Virus record (IMG/VR): IMGVR_UViG_3300035182_001074
Span: 1 to 57,216 of that record
DNA: 57,216 nucleotides
From: a virus
Taxonomy: Duplodnaviria > Caudoviricetes
Strand: one strand, 5' to 3'
In this document: positions 41,557 through 46,503 of the stretch, piece after piece
How positions within the stretch are numbered: position 1 is the first letter of the stretch
How the letters are laid out: the number at the start of each line of letters is the position of its first letter
Translations under genes and position numbers: made by a program
Notes under the pieces: generated by a model
What the model was told of the DNA's origin: nothing
The model's database searches: none
What the model saw: only the letters and a program-made list of their open reading frames with translations

Positions 41557-42105
41557 TTACATCATAGATTCTGCGCGTAGCCATCTAACACAGCGCACCA
41601 GAGCCTCTGTGTCAGCCATCGCCCGATGCGCATCCTTGAAGTCTTCTCCTGTGCAATGCAGATGCAAGTCGCTAAGTCGCATGCGCTTGTTGTTGATCCC
41701 AAAACTTGCCTCAACGGTGCACACCTGCTTTGGTGGCCAAGGAAAGGCAAACTCCTTACCGATGCGAATCAGTTCAAGCTTGAGCAGCGTCTTATCAAAG
41801 TCCAGATTGTGCGCAACCATCATCTGCTCCCCGAGGAAGAAGTCACACAGATCATGATAGTGCGAGGCGAAAGGCTCCTGATCCTTCAGCATTTCATCCG
41901 TAATGCTCGTGATCTTGATGATCTCTTCTGGGAGAGCACAGCCGGGATTGCACATGAAGGTAAGGCGCTCAATTTCCTCCAGCGTGATGTCATCCAGCTT
42001 CACTCCGGCGAATTCAATGATCTGTGGCTGCTCTTCAATGCGGACTAGGCTTGGCAGGATCAGGCCTGTTGTCTCAGTATCGAAGATGATCATAGGTTCG
42101 ACCAC
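41557..42105 (-). CDS. DEDDh 3'-5' exonuclease (Pol III epsilon-like)
   Basis: FDTETTG, AHN..FD and HRA.AD. Confidence 0.92.
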   Translation of the reverse strand: MVEPMIIFDTETTGLILPSLVRIEEQPQIIEFAGVKLDDITLEEIERLTFMCNPGCALPEEIIKITSITDEMLKDQEPFASHYHDLCDFFLGEQMMVAHNLDFDKTLLKLELIRIGKEFAFPWPPKQVCTVEASFGINNKRMRLSDLHLHCTGEDFKDAHRAMADTEALVRCVRWLRAESMM

Positions 42106-42449
42106 ATGTCGTCTGCTTGTTTCTGACGCTGTAGCTGTGCCTCTCGGTCAAGAGACTCCAGCATAGATGCATAGACAATGAGGTCGTGCTGGCTGTCAAT
42201 GTGTCCGACCTCAAAGTTTGCTGCATAGCGCGCAATTTTGACTACCTCCATGTGGAAACAGCCATATCGGTTCCAGTCCTCGGGGCTGTTGATGGTTAGG
42301 CCATTCGGGAACAAGGCCATCATGATGTGGCCAAATCGCTTGTATGCCTCTCCGCTGTTTCCACCATACTGCTTGCCGCGCTGCGCGAAGGTTTGCATTG
42401 CATCCTGCAAGCAGATCTGCGGTCCAGAGATTGTGCTGCGATCATCCAT
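42090..42449 (-). CDS. All-alpha nucleotide-modification-associated protein (DUF6378/Nmad-like)
   Basis: RGKQYG...K.ARY...H.DS..DL.VY..ML pattern; AGGAG RBS. Confidence 0.6.
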   Translation of the reverse strand: MDDRSTISGPQICLQDAMQTFAQRGKQYGGNSGEAYKRFGHIMMALFPNGLTINSPEDWNRYGCFHMEVVKIARYAANFEVGHIDSQHDLIVYASMLESLDREAQLQRQKQADDMWSNL

Positions 42450-42910
42450 CAGTAGTCTCCTTTCTGAACTTGAAAGCAAGTCAAGCCTTCTTTGCGCCAC
42501 ATGTCAACCACAGCATCCCGATCCTCGAACACCCCAACGACATCAAACAGTGGGTAGATCTGCTCGTGATAGATCTCACGTTTGATGATGTGATCAGATC
42601 GATAATCGCCATCCTTGCGCATCAAAAGGCGACGGAATGGGACTCTGTGCTTGATCAACCATTGGATGGTGGCTTCCTGGTAGCGAGAGGACCTCCCAGT
42701 CACCAGGATAATTGGATACCCATCCGCGTTTAAGGCATCGACCACACGAAGAACGTCTGTCTTTGGCTCATCAAGGTTCAGCATTGAATTGAACACTTCC
42801 CAGTTCTTTGTGCCGTGTGGATTGCTGATGTGTATGATGCGATGTCCGCAGTCGGCTATGGTCCCATCAATATCAACGATGTAACACTTAGTCTTGCCGA
42901 CCGCATTCAT
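42449..42910 (-). CDS. HAD-family phosphatase (PNKP 3'-phosphatase-like)
   Basis: DIDGT, VTGR, MR..GD.RSD...K and FEDR. Confidence 0.9.
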   Translation of the reverse strand: MNAVGKTKCYIVDIDGTIADCGHRIIHISNPHGTKNWEVFNSMLNLDEPKTDVLRVVDALNADGYPIILVTGRSSRYQEATIQWLIKHRVPFRRLLMRKDGDYRSDHIIKREIYHEQIYPLFDVVGVFEDRDAVVDMWRKEGLTCFQVQKGDY

Positions 42911-43894: not shown

Positions 43895-45559
43895 TCACAG
43901 CACCTCCTCGCCTCTGGTATAGAGAACGTTGTTGTGCCAGATGCAGTGGCTGTGTGGCCAACGCATGGCACTCTCTACATCAGGGAAGAATCCGCTGCCA
44001 TTGAGATTGGCGCTGGTATTGCACAGCAGAGGGATGCCCGTTATCTCATAGTAGCGAGTGAGCAGATCGCACACGACGAAGTTCTCTGTAGCATTGACAG
44101 TCTGCAGTCGCGCAGTGCCATCAAGGTGCACAATCGCCGGCACCTTCGCCACCCATTCATCCTTCACACGATGATCGAAGAGCATGAATGGATCAGGAGT
44201 CCCGGGAGTGAAAACTTCTGGAGCATGCTGCTCCAAGCATATCGGCGCCACAGGACGGAACGACTCTCTGAGCTTCATCTCATTGAGTAGTCCTTTTGTT
44301 TCTGCATGGATGGCAGAGCACAAGATACTCCGGTTGCCCAGCGCACGAGGCCCAGCTTCACACCGACCATTCAGGAACACAACCGGAGTATCAGGGTGGG
44401 TCGCAAAGAACTGAGCCAGCTCACTGATTGAACATTCCTTCTGCACCCAACCTTCCGGAATCGTTCCGATCTGTGCTTCCATGCCGCAATATACGCTCCA
44501 GTCGAGCTCAAGAATGCCATCCTCGGTGAACATCGCACAGGCAGCAGCACCAATTGCGCTACCAGAGTCATTGGGGAATGGAGGGACATAGACTGCTTTG
44601 AAGTGCCCACTGTTGCGCAATGCGCTATTCCATTTGATGTTGAGTGCGCTGCCGCCTGTGAAGCACAAATTCGCACCCTTGGGAATAATTGCGCAGGCAT
44701 TCTCCACCAGCATGATCTTCAACCATTCATGGATTGAAGCGAGCACATCAGCATCACTCAGATTGCCAATTGACTCCACTTCTGCCTTCACCCCACGCAT
44801 GAACTCATGCTCCATGATTCCTGTCTGGTTGTAGCCAAGAGGGCAGTCGTCGTTGATGTTGCTCACACGGAAATAGATGCCCATCATTCGCTGAACTAGA
44901 TCAGGGCTGGCAGTTCCTTGCGCGATGTAGCTCATCAATTTTCCTGGGACATCATATCCGCGTCCATACCGCGTCACCTGCTTGATGTCTTCACCCCACA
45001 CATGCGGTTCTTTGTATGGGCCATAGTAGTAGCCCATCACCGCATAGATGATGCCGTAGAGTTCAAACAGTGACGAAATGAATTGGAACTTGCCGAGGCC
45101 AGGATCGAAATAATGGACACGCGGATTCTGCCCGCCATCCCAGCTGATGAAGTAGCAGCACTCTCGGTTCTTGGCGAATGGGCTAGTAACGTAAGCACTC
45201 ATCAGGTGTCCGCTCATGTGTGGGAAGCTGATGTAGTTGCCAAAGATTTTGTCTTCTGGGTAGAACACCGACGGATCGAGTGGATGCTGATTGCTGCTAT
45301 CAAATTCTGAATAGCCAGCAACCTCAAAGGTGCCAGCCGGGGAGATGGCGCTGCTGTACTTCCAGCCATCTAGAACGAACAGGTCTGGGACAAAGTTGAA
45401 ATGCTCCAGAATGTCATCCACATCATCGGTGGTCGTCATTTTTGAGTAGCGAGGATTGTTGCGCAGCTTCTCTATCTCCACACAGAAGAGCAGCTTGCCA
45501 TCCTCAATCCCTGCCACTGCTGCGTCATGGGTCAGCTTGATGCCGCAGATCTTTGTCAT
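43895..45559 (-). CDS. O-carbamoyltransferase (NodU/CmcH/TobZ family)
   Basis: THDAAVA, HMSGH, GKLM, GG.ALN, PPFPND.G.AIG, E.GPRALG.RS, K.RE.FRP.AP, H.DGTAR.QTV and NTS.N. Confidence 0.93.
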   Translation of the reverse strand: MTKICGIKLTHDAAVAGIEDGKLLFCVEIEKLRNNPRYSKMTTTDDVDDILEHFNFVPDLFVLDGWKYSSAISPAGTFEVAGYSEFDSSNQHPLDPSVFYPEDKIFGNYISFPHMSGHLMSAYVTSPFAKNRECCYFISWDGGQNPRVHYFDPGLGKFQFISSLFELYGIIYAVMGYYYGPYKEPHVWGEDIKQVTRYGRGYDVPGKLMSYIAQGTASPDLVQRMMGIYFRVSNINDDCPLGYNQTGIMEHEFMRGVKAEVESIGNLSDADVLASIHEWLKIMLVENACAIIPKGANLCFTGGSALNIKWNSALRNSGHFKAVYVPPFPNDSGSAIGAAACAMFTEDGILELDWSVYCGMEAQIGTIPEGWVQKECSISELAQFFATHPDTPVVFLNGRCEAGPRALGNRSILCSAIHAETKGLLNEMKLRESFRPVAPICLEQHAPEVFTPGTPDPFMLFDHRVKDEWVAKVPAIVHLDGTARLQTVNATENFVVCDLLTRYYEITGIPLLCNTSANLNGSGFFPDVESAMRWPHSHCIWHNNVLYTRGEEVL

Positions 45560-45570
45560 GGTTTATTCCT

Positions 45571-46503
45571 TTATGAATTCAAGACGATTGACTTCTGTGC
45601 GTGATAGAGGTCGCGTTGTGTAATGAAGGATTCAATGAACTGGATATCGTTTACCAGATCATCGAGTAGGATCTGCCTCCACGTGGCAAACCTTCCTAGG
45701 GAATAGATGTGATGCTGCTGGCTAGCAGTGAAGATGAAGTTCTTGCGCAGCAGGTCGTTGATTGGGCTGATCTTGCCGTAACGCTGGACTGAGATTTTCT
45801 CGTTTGCAAGAACTCTTGGCTGGATTCCGAACGCAGTAAGCCATTCATCCGCCAGAGACCCACAGCTTGTCCCTTCTGGGTCCTTCATGAATTCGAGAAT
45901 CACTTTGTTGCCTGTGATGCTTGCTCGATAAAGAGGAAGGTCTGGATCTGGGAAATACAGCGTCTGGTAAACATCGACGATCGGATCAAGTATCTCCGCA
46001 GTCACCACCCAGATCGGACTGGATCCAAAGACTGGCATGCTATCCCAGCCAAGCTGAGTCATCAGCACAGGCATCGGCATGGTGCTGATGACTGGCTCTG
46101 AGCTGTTTTCTTCTTGTGATAGATCTATCGCAGAATTGAAAACAATGTCCACACATTGAGCCATCTGCTGGATGAAATCCTGAGGAGCAATAAATCGCTC
46201 CTCAGGATCAAGATTGATGATGCTCCTAGTCACGACACGACCAATCACTTTCTGCGCATACATGTTGCTCAGGCGGAGATTCGTCGTTGTGTGGATGGCA
46301 CCCCTCTCATCAATGATTGCTTTTTGGACTTTGACTTTCTTGAATGGGATGCCCGTCGCTCGACTGACGCCCTCATTGCGGAAGCGCAGCACTGCTGCAT
46401 GATTGTCGGGCAGCGTCTCTCTCTGCTCATAGACAACAGGATTGTGTCTACGCAACATATTTGCAGCGAGTAGCCCTGCCATTCCCGCACCAATGATTTT
46501 CAT
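45571..46503 (-). CDS. FAD/NAD(P)-binding oxidoreductase
   Basis: [12 protein letters not shown]ossmann motif; C-terminal SLGRFATWR. Confidence 0.85.

Follow-up and report, generated by a model that had tools for sequence, protein, structure and literature searches.

Gene order at the locus

The window, that is, the whole stretch of DNA analysed here, is a 57216-bp phage record with direct terminal repeats (the terminal 127 nt are identical at both ends), which is rated 100% complete; the phage is known from metagenome contigs only. On the minus strand, genes for a flavoprotein, a carbamoyltransferase (CT), a ThyX, a HAD phosphatase and a small protein follow one another in this order, and are succeeded by those for an exonuclease and DnaE. 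From the upstream flank onwards, the features are:

48726-50282, minus strand: AEP primase (Pfam), upstream flank of the island
47151-48599, minus strand: UvrD/Dda-like helicase (Pfam), upstream flank of the island
46522..47091, minus strand: Lys/Ala/Pro-rich repeat protein ('TolA-like' in relatives), conserved neighbour upstream of the flavoprotein
45571..46503, minus strand: FAD/NAD(P)-binding flavoprotein of predicted UGM fold, 310 aa, core island gene (phrog_4828, fold)
43895..45559, minus strand: NodU-like O-carbamoyltransferase (CT), 554 aa, accessory gene distinguishing this phage (Carbam_trans_N + Carbam_trans_C)
42907..43758, minus strand: ThyX, ATG at 43758, with a longer ORF from a GTG at 43821 (PF02511, TIGR02170)
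42449..42910, minus strand: HAD-superfamily phosphatase of the PNKP-phosphatase type, ATG at 42910, ORF to 42970 (HAD_PNKP 1.9e-37; phrog_505, phrog_415)
42090..42449, minus strand: small four-helix protein 'Cdom', ORF to 42500 (phrog_4889 match, weak DUF6378)
41557..42093, minus strand: DnaQ-like 3'-5' exonuclease, ATG at 42093, ORF to 42105 (RNase_T 1.5e-23; phrog_192)
38421..41282, minus strand: DnaE-type DNA polymerase III alpha subunit (DNA_pol3_alpha 4e-66, finger and PHP domains)

The junctions were read directly. An 11-nt gap separates the flavoprotein stop from the CT ATG and a 136-nt gap the CT stop from the ThyX ATG at 43758, which is preceded by an AAGGAG Shine-Dalgarno, and the junctions that follow are overlaps: ATGA between ThyX and HAD, TGATG between HAD and the small protein, and ATGA between the small protein and the exonuclease. 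The five cluster genes are translationally coupled. The original prediction, made from the letters of the window, had described them as clustered, co-oriented and mostly overlapping or closely spaced, directly upstream of the exonuclease and dnaE, and this description is confirmed. Its remark that a ThyA-fold gene is not visible extends to the entire complete genome, where the PF00303 profile gave 0 matches; a scan of 59 window ORFs also turned up no glycosyltransferase, 5-HMUDK-type kinase or aGPT-Pplase. The gene for the Lys/Ala/Pro-rich protein contains 15 copies of a 15-bp unit, and its product, which has a weak histone-H1-like HC2 match (E 0.077), is syntenic in relatives, where the upstream order primase-helicase-Lys/Ala/Pro-rich protein-flavoprotein is kept.

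Protein families and folds

The flavoprotein matches phrog_4828 at 6.3e-74, and Pfam gives a weak NAD_binding_8 match only, with no GLF match even at E<=10. Its AlphaFold model (pLDDT 88.8) points to the fold of UDP-galactopyranose mutase (UGM, Glf), in agreement with the UGM-like identity that had been proposed from the C-terminal GRFATWR: Foldseek ranks 1-12 are all UGM or UNGM, and in VIA-align 4dsg_A is the best match (Z 21.4, rmsd 3.5, 298 residues aligned), with protoporphyrinogen oxidase behind UGM at Z 18.9. The N-terminal GxGxxG and a C-terminal GR-x-x-T/Y-W/Y-type motif are shared with UGM. However, the window protein is shorter than UGMs (310 vs 360-500 aa) and only 12-18% identical to them, protoporphyrinogen and amine oxidases reach nearly equal scores (Z 17-19), and the family is virus-specific, its ESM Atlas clusters being 98-100% viral.

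NodU is the rhizobial Nod-factor 6-O-carbamoyltransferase. The window CT (Carbam_trans_N 1.6e-55, Carbam_trans_C 2.7e-43) shares 44-46% identity with rhizobial NodU across 99% of its own length, and NF041651 NodU is its best NCBIfam match, albeit at 562 bits and thus below the 1000-bit equivalog cut-off. The catalytic motifs are conserved in an alignment to GdmN, NovN and the 7xb6 carbamoyltransferase; the other phage CTs compared are distant, at 25-37% identity. A quick tree places the window CT in a 29-row clade with NodU and NRPS-cluster CTs, far from two distant phage CTs, and the bacterial CTs form their own clade (support 96). The nearest bacterial kin sit in NRPS clusters beside CmlA-like beta-hydroxylases (9/9 loci scanned), and the nod or NRPS contexts of bacterial members differ from the window in that island genes occur at 0/79 bacterial CT loci. 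The PHROG category and existing annotations class the CTs of cyanophages and pelagiphages as auxiliary metabolic genes.

ThyX, which has a Cys-rich C-terminal extension, matches PF02511 at 1.8e-37 and lies above the curated TIGR02170 equivalog cut-off (93.7 vs 87.9 bits). Aligned to the sequences of solved ThyX structures and to 20 island ThyX, it looks orthologous to the ThyX of CT-less relatives, with the same motifs and, by eye, no CT-specific active-site change. Because of this, and because the cut-off is passed, a hydroxymethylase role for an atypical ThyX remains purely inferential. The aromatic residue after the S-x-R motif, Y or F in two solved ThyX, is present in 0/21 island rows, and the window ThyX has a one-residue insertion in its RHR...S motif.

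The small protein has no Pfam match at E<=0.01. At E<=10 DUF6378 is the sole match (E 0.012, under its cut-off), and the 'Nmad-like' identity first proposed is not supported. Residues 244-333 of phrog_4889 are matched at 2.2e-12, and the counterpart of the protein in Pbunavirus and Wifcevirus is the C-terminal portion of a fused 'PNK/phosphatase'; homologues in relatives are stand-alone genes of 99-133 aa. Its model has 4 helices (pLDDT 85.5) and gave no informative match against the PDB.

The island in relatives and the position of the CT

The best 80 of 544 IMG/VR relatives of the flavoprotein were surveyed. ThyX comes after the flavoprotein in 76/76 of their loci with at least 1.5 kb downstream. 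In 48 loci the downstream sequence reaches 5 kb or more, and these contain ThyX (48), HAD (45), the small protein (47), the exonuclease (47) and DnaE (48), and a CT in one (1/48). The island order is also present in Wifcevirus Bas98, Aeromonas phage Gekk3-15 and Pbunavirus 14-1 and F8, as well as in the podoviruses Cronobacter Ss1 and Vibrio VA-RY-3 (both small). A FastTree phylogeny of flavoprotein and ThyX (72 rows) puts the window in a 13-row clade (support 96) with 14-1, Bas98 and Gekk3-15, and PF00303 has no match in any of five genomes (0/5), namely 14-1, F8, Bas98 and two CT-bearing relatives. Hundreds of phage contigs without a CT share the flavoprotein, ThyX, HAD and small protein genes as a conserved core; the island is not confined to this phage, and the sole novelty is the CT in an otherwise widespread island.

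When IMG/VR was searched with a CT profile, 21 of 26 loci had the CT inside the island, at five different positions; these 21 CTs are co-oriented with the island, and DnaE across their hosts is 37-76% identical. One CT locus (L012) has the flavoprotein, with ThyX absent within 11.8 kb. At least 5-7 gains or losses are needed to explain CT presence on the island tree, and this number, together with the five positions, indicates that the CT is mobile yet settles in the island. The slots it takes hold, in relatives, class-I methyltransferases, SDRs, a glyoxalase/dioxygenase, Nmad5, two 2OG-Fe(II) oxygenases and MazG, which are tailoring-type enzymes.

Modified DNA in relatives and the proposed role of the island

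Hypermodified thymidine has been reported for Pbunavirus F8 and 14-1 in a 2025 preprint (PMC12191111; bioRxiv 10.1101/2025.03.31.646159). The preprint gives new nucleosides derived from thymidine, of 362 u in F8 and 390 u in 14-1, with about 1/4 of T replaced, at a TG motif, and describes them as sugar-alcohol and aldopentose derivatives in tentative assignments worded as 'consistent with'; it does not report 5hmdU (258 u) and names no responsible genes, so that the link to the island is drawn by elimination and synteny. Both phages share the island, the 13-row clade and the lack of a ThyA-fold gene with the window phage, but have no CT. Their islands are collinear at ~90% identity, so that what the island encodes does not account for the difference between the two nucleosides. 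A TET/JBP (Tet_JBP) profile had no match in F8 and 14-1, with the positive control silent too. In nominal masses, 258 (5hmdU) + 150 - 18 = 390 and 258 + 122 - 18 = 362; both nucleosides thus fit O-linked 5hmdU derivatives with free hydroxyls. The TG specificity implies modification on the DNA polymer, and if this pattern holds, incorporation of a finished base by the phage polymerase, as originally envisaged, is unlikely. For Wifcevirus, PMC11990801 speaks of 'considerable resistance to restriction' and gives no mechanism.

The precedent invoked in the original prediction, a phage CT acting on 5hmC, is confirmed by the MetaGPA study (Yang et al., eLife 2021, PMC8670742). According to that paper, the enzyme uses carbamoyl phosphate and ATP to carbamoylate the base hydroxymethyl of 5hmC in single-stranded DNA, giving 5-carbamoyloxymethylcytosine; W408, G421 and R423 are given there as discriminating residues, and a figure legend indicates that nucleotide substrates are also accepted. 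Like the window CT, it is phage-encoded, of the same superfamily (Carbam_trans_N + Carbam_trans_C) and placed among nucleotide genes, but its partners are a ThyA-fold hydroxymethylase, dCMP deaminase and MazG-type genes, whereas those of the window CT are ThyX and the UGM-fold flavoprotein, without a ThyA-fold gene. In the pathways of M6, ViI, PaMx11, SP10 and PhiW-14 (Lee et al., PNAS 2018; NAR 2021, PMC8989533), a 5-hydroxymethyl-dU-type base is decorated after replication by combinatorial tailoring enzymes, one of them an FAD enzyme whose substrates are thymidine adducts in DNA. Nucleophiles there capture an exocyclic methylene, through which ThyX chemistry also passes, ThyX serving in that paper as a mechanistic analogy only. 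These pathways differ in having a ThyA-family dUMP hydroxymethylase or TET_JBP, the 5-HMUDK kinase and aGPT-Pplase transferases, none of which was detected in the scan of 59 window ORFs.

Tentatively, and with somewhat less than even confidence in this joint reading, we regard the region as a replication-linked DNA-modification island, with a core common to a large phage group including Pbunavirus and Wifcevirus, that makes a hydroxyl-bearing thymidine derivative which the CT O-carbamoylates. More specifically, in the window phage, as in a minority of its relatives, a NodU-like CT would have joined the core island. The core and host metabolism would most likely yield a thymidine derivative with a free hydroxyl, possibly 5-hydroxymethyl-dU or its sugar or polyol ether, in line with the Pbunavirus masses; the CT would form carbamoyl-AMP from carbamoyl phosphate and ATP and with it carbamoylate that hydroxyl, probably post-replicatively and on DNA, and the resulting carbamoylated thymidine may protect the phage DNA against nucleases of the host. 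What the genes are, the fold, how the operon is built, its conservation and the patchy distribution are established directly; each chemical step, the acceptor and the timing are what we infer. Several points count against this reading: ThyX may simply make dTMP; the closest bacterial CT kin (NodU and NRPS-cluster CTs) do not act on nucleic acids; the CT is distant from other phage CTs; L012 lacks a nearby ThyX; the scan of window ORFs gave no glycosyltransferase, 5-HMUDK-type kinase or aGPT-Pplase; and for Pbunavirus the structural assignments are tentative, the link to the island is indirect, and the F8 and 14-1 islands do not account for their different nucleosides.

A less probable explanation, though one to be taken seriously, is that the CT is a moron, an accessory gene of metabolism that has nothing to do with DNA. 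It would carbamoylate some other hydroxyl, for instance on a host envelope sugar or a small metabolite, and the remaining island genes would only provide dTMP and nucleotide processing for replication. NodU as the closest characterised kin (44-46% identity, 562 bits to NF041651), the NRPS-cluster relatives, the classification of cyanophage and pelagiphage CTs as auxiliary metabolic genes, a ThyX above its curated cut-off and the rare, patchy, moron-like occurrence in the island (1/48 loci, best 80 of 544) all fit it. A random insertion hot-spot, however, is not expected to retain the CT in the island, and the 21 island-associated CTs are all co-oriented inside it, at five positions, in phages whose DnaE is only 37-76% identical; island genes are at 0/79 bacterial CT loci, the other variable island genes, Nmad5 and 2OG oxygenases among them, belong to nucleotide- or base-modification types, and relatives carry modified DNA (PMC12191111).

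The route originally proposed is improbable. Here ThyX would be a nucleotide-level hydroxymethylase, water capturing the exocyclic methylene (PMC8989533) to give 5hm-dUMP or 5hm-dCMP; phage DnaE would incorporate the modified dNTP, after which the CT would produce a 5-carbamoyloxymethyl-pyrimidine, with a calculated nucleoside mass of 301 u for the dU form; 5cmdC is a precedent (PMC8670742). Neither the complete genome nor the hypermodified relatives have a ThyA-fold gene, the TET/JBP search of the latter was without a match (its control also silent), and the missing aromatic residue and the RHR...S insertion would suit an altered ThyX. Against this, such ThyX features are common to CT-less phages and the protein's score is that of a genuine ThyX, and the TG motif and ~75% canonical T in Pbunavirus favour polymer-level modification over replacement of the dNTP pool, and 5hmdU is not reported. 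Far less probable still is that the target of the CT is not a base in DNA but the sugar hydroxyl of a free nucleoside or nucleotide, or another soluble pool molecule, so as to alter pools or host defence signalling; the CT does lie among nucleotide-metabolism genes, next to a phosphatase, and the validated 5hmC enzyme also took nucleotides according to a figure legend, but neither direct support nor a precedent was found in the literature examined.

The carbamoylated thymidine reading retains from the original prediction a good candidate for a hypermodification pathway without a ThyA-fold enzyme, and leaves aside the ThyX hydroxymethylase and the Nmad-like label. The candidate is strengthened because F8 and 14-1, with the same flavoprotein-ThyX island, are reported to have hypermodified thymidine. 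If the reading is true, a CT in a thymidine-modification island would produce a new DNA decoration, predicted from genes.

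Genome and gene order in the window

The window record (57216 bp) has direct terminal repeats and a completeness rating of 100%. The identity of positions 1-127 and 57090-57216 (127 nt) is an overlap left by assembly, the genome being circular or terminally redundant, and the portal gene spans the junction of the two genome ends. On the basis of its portal, protease, major head, sheath, E217_Gp32, E217_GP41 and Pam3 gp32-34 families, the phage is judged to be a myovirus of the PB1/E217 type. Megablast returned no near-identical phage record for the window, and the phage is uncultured, being seen only as contigs from sediment/microbial-mat metagenomes. 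The segment 42090-46503 is contained in full in contigs from three sequencing runs and to 70% in those of a fourth; three of these four may be the source sample.

Genes of the region in transcription order
48726-50282, minus strand: archaeo-eukaryotic (AEP) primase
47151-48599, minus strand: UvrD/Dda-like helicase
46522-47091, minus strand: Lys/Ala/Pro-rich repeat protein
45571-46503, minus strand: flavoprotein
43895-45559, minus strand: NodU-like O-carbamoyltransferase (CT)
42907-43758/43821, minus strand: ThyX
42449-42910/42970, minus strand: HAD_PNKP phosphatase (HAD)
42090-42449/42500, minus strand: small helical protein
41557-42093/42105, minus strand: DnaQ-like exonuclease
38421-41282, minus strand: DnaE

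The original prediction described the genes from flavoprotein to small protein as a contiguous, co-oriented cluster next to the exonuclease and DnaE. This observation is correct, since genes, coordinates, gene order and junctions could all be read directly in the window: a gap of 11 nt separates the flavoprotein from the CT and one of 136 nt the CT from ThyX, while the ThyX/HAD, HAD/small protein and small protein/exonuclease pairs overlap by ATGA, TGATG and ATGA, respectively. The further claim that no ThyA-fold gene is visible holds for the whole complete genome (0 matches to PF00303, with the control positive in 10 of 14 genomes).

Two genes upstream of the island deserve mention in their own right. 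The primase has as its top Pfam match the AEP domain of the TOTE conflict system (PF22548, 2.6e-14). The Lys/Ala/Pro-rich protein is encoded by about 15 copies of a 15-bp unit giving KKAAP-type repeats, weakly matches the histone-H1-like HC2 family (E 0.077), and in relatives, where it is annotated as 'TolA-like', always lies directly upstream of the flavoprotein; it may be a DNA-binding component of the replication module.

Island core and variable slots

By tblastn the flavoprotein is found in 362 phage records (292 Pseudomonas, 27 Escherichia), and the records found to hold the island-type ThyX show identical counts per organism. The order flavoprotein, ThyX, HAD/helical protein, exonuclease and DnaE is shared by six annotated phages, namely Wifcevirus Bas98, Aeromonas phage Gekk3-15, the Pbunaviruses 14-1 and F8, Cronobacter Ss1 and Vibrio VA-RY-3, the last two being podoviruses of about 40 kb. 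In an IMG/VR survey of the flavoprotein, covering the best 80 of 544 stretches that encode a relative, ThyX follows in 76 of the 76 loci that continue for 1.5 kb or more downstream. The sole CT locus among the 48 that extend further belongs to the nearest relative of the window. The core of the island is thus conserved, and the CT is its variable part.

Island genes at loci that continue for 5 kb or more downstream of the flavoprotein (best 80 of 544 stretches)
ThyX: 48/48
DnaE: 48/48
Small helical protein: 47/48
Exonuclease: 47/48
HAD: 45/48
CT: 1/48

A search of IMG/VR with a CT profile gave 26 loci (handles with the prefix L denote surveyed loci), and the CT lies inside the island in 21 of the 26, which include the near-duplicates L008/L024, L011/L025, L015/L016 and L020/L021. 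It occupies different slots, between flavoprotein and ThyX, ThyX and HAD, HAD and small protein, small protein and exonuclease, or exonuclease and DnaE. The flavoprotein is present at all 16 CT-island loci that reach far enough upstream, and ThyX at 17 of the 21; three of the others are truncated, and L012 is truly without ThyX within 11.8 kb. L012, a 12388-bp contig from IMG/VR and the only locus to break the pairing of flavoprotein and ThyX, reads flavoprotein, HAD, exonuclease, CT, methyltransferase, two unknown ORFs and DnaE, with no ThyX detected.

In a FastTree phylogeny of flavoprotein and ThyX (72 rows, 14 with and 58 without a CT), presence of the CT changes 7 times, at least 5 of these changes being forced by well-supported branches, against a mean of 12.9 for shuffled labels; beyond L005, the closest neighbours of the window have no CT. 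In a quick IQ-TREE phylogeny of 31 CTs, all 12 bacterial CTs form a single clade (support 96), outside which the island CTs fall in unresolved groups. On this evidence the CT has moved repeatedly among these phages, each time into the island.

Other enzymes use the same slots. Among 44 ORFs scanned at CT-bearing loci there are small class-I methyltransferases (L005, L008, L012 and L018), SDRs (L015 and L017), and a MazG together with a DenV-like protein (L008). For 79 CT-less loci, 203 ORFs fell into 44 clusters, of which 31 representatives were scanned; these slots hold a weak DenV-like protein (40 loci), SDRs (18+2+1), a glyoxalase/dioxygenase (15) and a methyltransferase (8), and in single cases Nmad5, two 2OG-Fe(II) oxygenases, a MazG-like protein and an FkbM methyltransferase. 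The Nmad5, in the L052 island, is a true one (44.5 bits) and sits between flavoprotein and ThyX. None of these other occupants was found in the window. The pattern suggests several different chemistries on one shared core and is that of a modification island whose core is fixed and whose tailoring enzymes can be exchanged for one another.

Examples of the CT-less occupants lie at L052:9890-10525, L074:10323-10880 and 13485-14063, L086:13180-13989 and L052:11927-12748 (Nmad5, 2OG-Fe(II) oxygenases, glyoxalase/dioxygenase and SDRs), one of the 2OG-Fe(II) oxygenases giving a weak Tet_JBP match. The DenV-like protein resembles T4 endonuclease V (about 200 aa; weak Pyr_excise match), and may be a base-flipping DNA-binding component; it lies between ThyX and HAD in 40 of the 79 CT-less loci (L058:5420-6025 and 39 more) as well as in a single CT-bearing locus (L008:2448-2951), and is absent from the window.

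Proteins of the island

The CT has two domains, a Kae1/ASKHA-like N-domain (PF02543, 1.6e-55) and a YrdC-like C-domain (PF16861, 2.7e-43), and keeps the motifs of both (H-D, H-x3-H, D-G and N-D-S-G in the former; GPRALGNRS and K-x-R-E-x-F-R-P in the latter). H11, D12, H114, H118, D141, D331, G403-S411 and others are invariant in an alignment of 37 CT sequences, and the motif residues align with those of the solved GdmN, NovN and 7xb6 carbamoyltransferase; from the TobZ literature, we take them to be the metal and carbamoyl-AMP ligands. The best curated match is NodU (NF041651), full-length and at 562.1 bits, which does not reach the equivalog cut-off of 1000 bits. Rhizobial NodU proteins show 44-46% identity over 99% of the CT, and no nod genes were found near it among the window ORFs scanned.

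The closest bacterial kin of the CT (up to 50% identity) lie in NRPS clusters with CmlA-like beta-hydroxylases at 9 of the 9 loci scanned, and island genes occur at 0 of 79 bacterial CT loci. At L116, L118, L120, L125, L131, L136, L138, L146 and L151, bacterial CTs adjoin NRPS modules, thioesterases and CmlA-like diiron beta-hydroxylases. This setting suggests that the bacterial kin carbamoylate beta-hydroxy amino acids of nonribosomal peptides, and hence that the subfamily may take diverse hydroxyls, typically those supplied by a neighbouring hydroxylase; the argument that a NodU-like enzyme must have a sugar acceptor is weakened accordingly. The top match to the CT in the phage database, MT837218.1 ('Bacteriophage sp.', 7.4 kb; 31.7% identity), was considered as a 5cmdC-type cluster and rejected, as it encodes a nitroreductase, a CT, an MFS transporter and an alginate lyase, and thus looks bacterial and irrelevant here.

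By HMM and motif, the window ThyX is a member of the ThyX family, scoring above curated cut-offs (PF02511, 129.5 bits; TIGR02170, 93.7 against 87.9 bits), and its dTMP synthesis is putative. Alignment to solved ThyX shows the motif R-H-R-x2-S-x4-S-x-R in the form RHRVGTAFAQQTQR, which has one inserted residue and carries T in place of the second S. Across 21 island ThyX, the H of RHR is replaced by T or S in most, and none has an aromatic residue after S-x-R (A, T, V, I, K or S stands there), the position occupied by Y or F in the two solved actinobacterial ThyX compared in the alignment. Judged by eye, CT-bearing and CT-less phages share one ThyX orthologue, whose motifs agree between the two groups. 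Two C-terminal types exist, one of them Cys-rich, and each occurs with and without a CT. In the Cys-rich subset, which spans CT-bearing and CT-less phages and includes Pbunavirus 14-1, four or five conserved cysteines (window 42907-43200, minus strand; likewise L005, L006, L009, L018, L002, L003 and L031) follow the pattern R-L-C in the last core helix, then C-x3-G-x-C-[CA]-F-P and one more C, and would suggest a metal or Fe-S site; the remaining island ThyX have a short helical tail.

The flavoprotein belongs to the virus-specific family phrog_4828 and matches in Pfam, at E<=10, only NAD_binding_8, FAD_binding_3 and Pyr_redox_2, all weakly. Its C-terminus had been said to recall UDP-galactopyranose mutases (UGMs), a likeness borne out by the predicted fold: UGMs take the top Foldseek ranks for the model (pLDDT 88.8), with 4dsg_A at Z 21.4 and rmsd 3.5 over 298 aligned residues, and protoporphyrinogen and amine oxidases are the second-best folds (Z 17-19). 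The modelled protein is 50-190 residues shorter than solved UGMs and has no match to the GLF family (PF03275) at E<=10. An apparent flavoprotein-ThyX fusion in L019 was rejected, a stop codon lying between the two genes.

The small protein (42090-42500) was originally taken for Nmad-like, a label not sustained in Pfam, where it matches no Nmad family and only DUF6378 (E 0.012). Its counterpart in relatives is the C-terminal portion of their fused 'PNK/phosphatase' (phrog_4889). It is a four-helix protein for which neither a profile search, nor Foldseek (best E 0.27), nor VIA-align (Z <= 8.5, helical hairpins only) gave a PDB relative.

Known modifications and the possible product of the island

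Thymidine hypermodification, as described in the available text of PMC8989533, proceeds from ThyA-family hydroxymethylases or TET_JBP with 5-HMUDK and aGPT-Pplase, and ThyX is cited there only for its exocyclic-methylene intermediate. In contrast to that pathway, neither its DNA kinase nor its amino-acid:DNA transferase is found in the window: 59 ORFs (all at least 100 aa) gave no match to the 5-HMUDK, aGPT-Pplase, ThyA-family or TET_JBP Pfam families, and no glycosyltransferase or kinase is evident among the window ORFs scanned. The only established DNA carbamoylation, according to the accessible part of PMC8670742, is 5cmdC, for which residues at TobZ positions 408, 421 and 423 are linked to modified contigs; there the CT is paired with a ThyA-fold (PF00303) enzyme, whereas the window genome has no PF00303 match. 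A ThyA-fold gene is likewise found in 0 of 5 records (14-1, F8, Bas98 and two CT-bearing relatives), and a Tet_JBP search of five relatives gave 0 matches, its control being equally silent, which makes this result uninformative.

Among relatives with the island, virion DNA of the Pbunaviruses F8 and 14-1 is reported to resist enzymes with TG in their sites, about a quarter of its thymidines being replaced by novel nucleosides (362 u and 390 u; structures tentative), and the family is stated to be without known hypermodification genes (END nuclease preprint, PMC12191111, in the sections available). Literature searches gave no later paper with a gene assignment for the Pbunavirus modification. 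Wifceviruses show considerable restriction resistance, for which the available portion of the BASEL paper (PMC11990801) states no mechanism. In nominal masses, 390 equals 5hmdU (258) plus a pentose (150) minus water (18), and 362 equals 5hmdU (258) plus a tetritol (122) minus water (18), so that the Pbunavirus bases would fit O-linked 5hmdU derivatives with free hydroxyls. The F8 and 14-1 islands are collinear, at about 90% identity, and island gene content was therefore rejected as the cause of the difference between their nucleosides. In Pbunavirus 14-1 and F8, ORF65 is the flavoprotein, ORF59 is ThyX, and ORF57 joins the HAD to the helical domain.

The island is the best candidate for Pbunavirus-type chemistry, because it is the only nucleotide-modification-like gene set common to these phages, because it joins the sole pyrimidine-C5 enzyme (ThyX) to a sugar-mutase-like flavoprotein, and because tailoring enzymes have been recruited into it. 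As the tailoring enzyme of the window is a CT, an O-carbamoylated thymidine derivative is predicted there, in which the carbamoyl would be accepted either by 5hmU or by a sugar or polyol attached to it. Its nucleoside would then have a mass of 301 u (5-carbamoyloxymethyl-dU), 405 u (362+43) or 433 u (390+43). This DNA-carbamoylation reading falls a little short of probable, since ThyX is the same orthologue with and without a CT, the nucleosides of F8 and 14-1 differ while their island gene content does not, L012 is without ThyX, no glycosyltransferase or kinase is evident, the phage is uncultured and the preprint structures are tentative. An unrelated accessory role for the CT is unlikely while still deserving serious weight. 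The route originally proposed, in which ThyX acts as a nucleotide-level hydroxymethylase and the polymerase incorporates the carbamoylated pyrimidine, appears improbable. Literature searches, including one for ThyX-based hydroxymethylation in phages, gave only the END nuclease preprint and papers describing ThyA- or TET-based routes.

A bolder form of the DNA-carbamoylation reading, rather unlikely as it stands, would make the flavoprotein-ThyX pair the engine of a route, so far uncharacterised and independent of ThyA and TET, by which thymine in DNA gains a hydroxymethyl or sugar substituent. ThyX-type flavin chemistry would supply or re-create a reactive exocyclic methylene, the UGM-fold flavoprotein would handle the sugar, and in this phage the NodU-like enzyme would add a carbamoyl cap, giving carbamoylated 5-hydroxymethyl-dU or carbamoyl-glycosyl-hydroxymethyl-dU, a base never described.

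Of the phages used against Pseudomonas aeruginosa, Pbunaviruses are some of the commonest choices. The hypermodification of their DNA was first reported in 2025, without gene assignment in the available text (PMC12191111), and the island beside DnaE, with its UGM-fold flavoprotein, ThyX, HAD phosphatase and DUF6378-like protein, is nominated as the place to look. Its variable slots, filled by CT, methyltransferases, SDRs, dioxygenases or Nmad5, suggest a family of related, chemically different thymidine decorations. If true, this would be the first hypermodification route built on ThyX instead of ThyA or TET/JBP. DNA carbamoylation, established for cytosine, would then also cover thymidine derivatives, and the genes behind Pbunavirus DNA modification would become directly testable.
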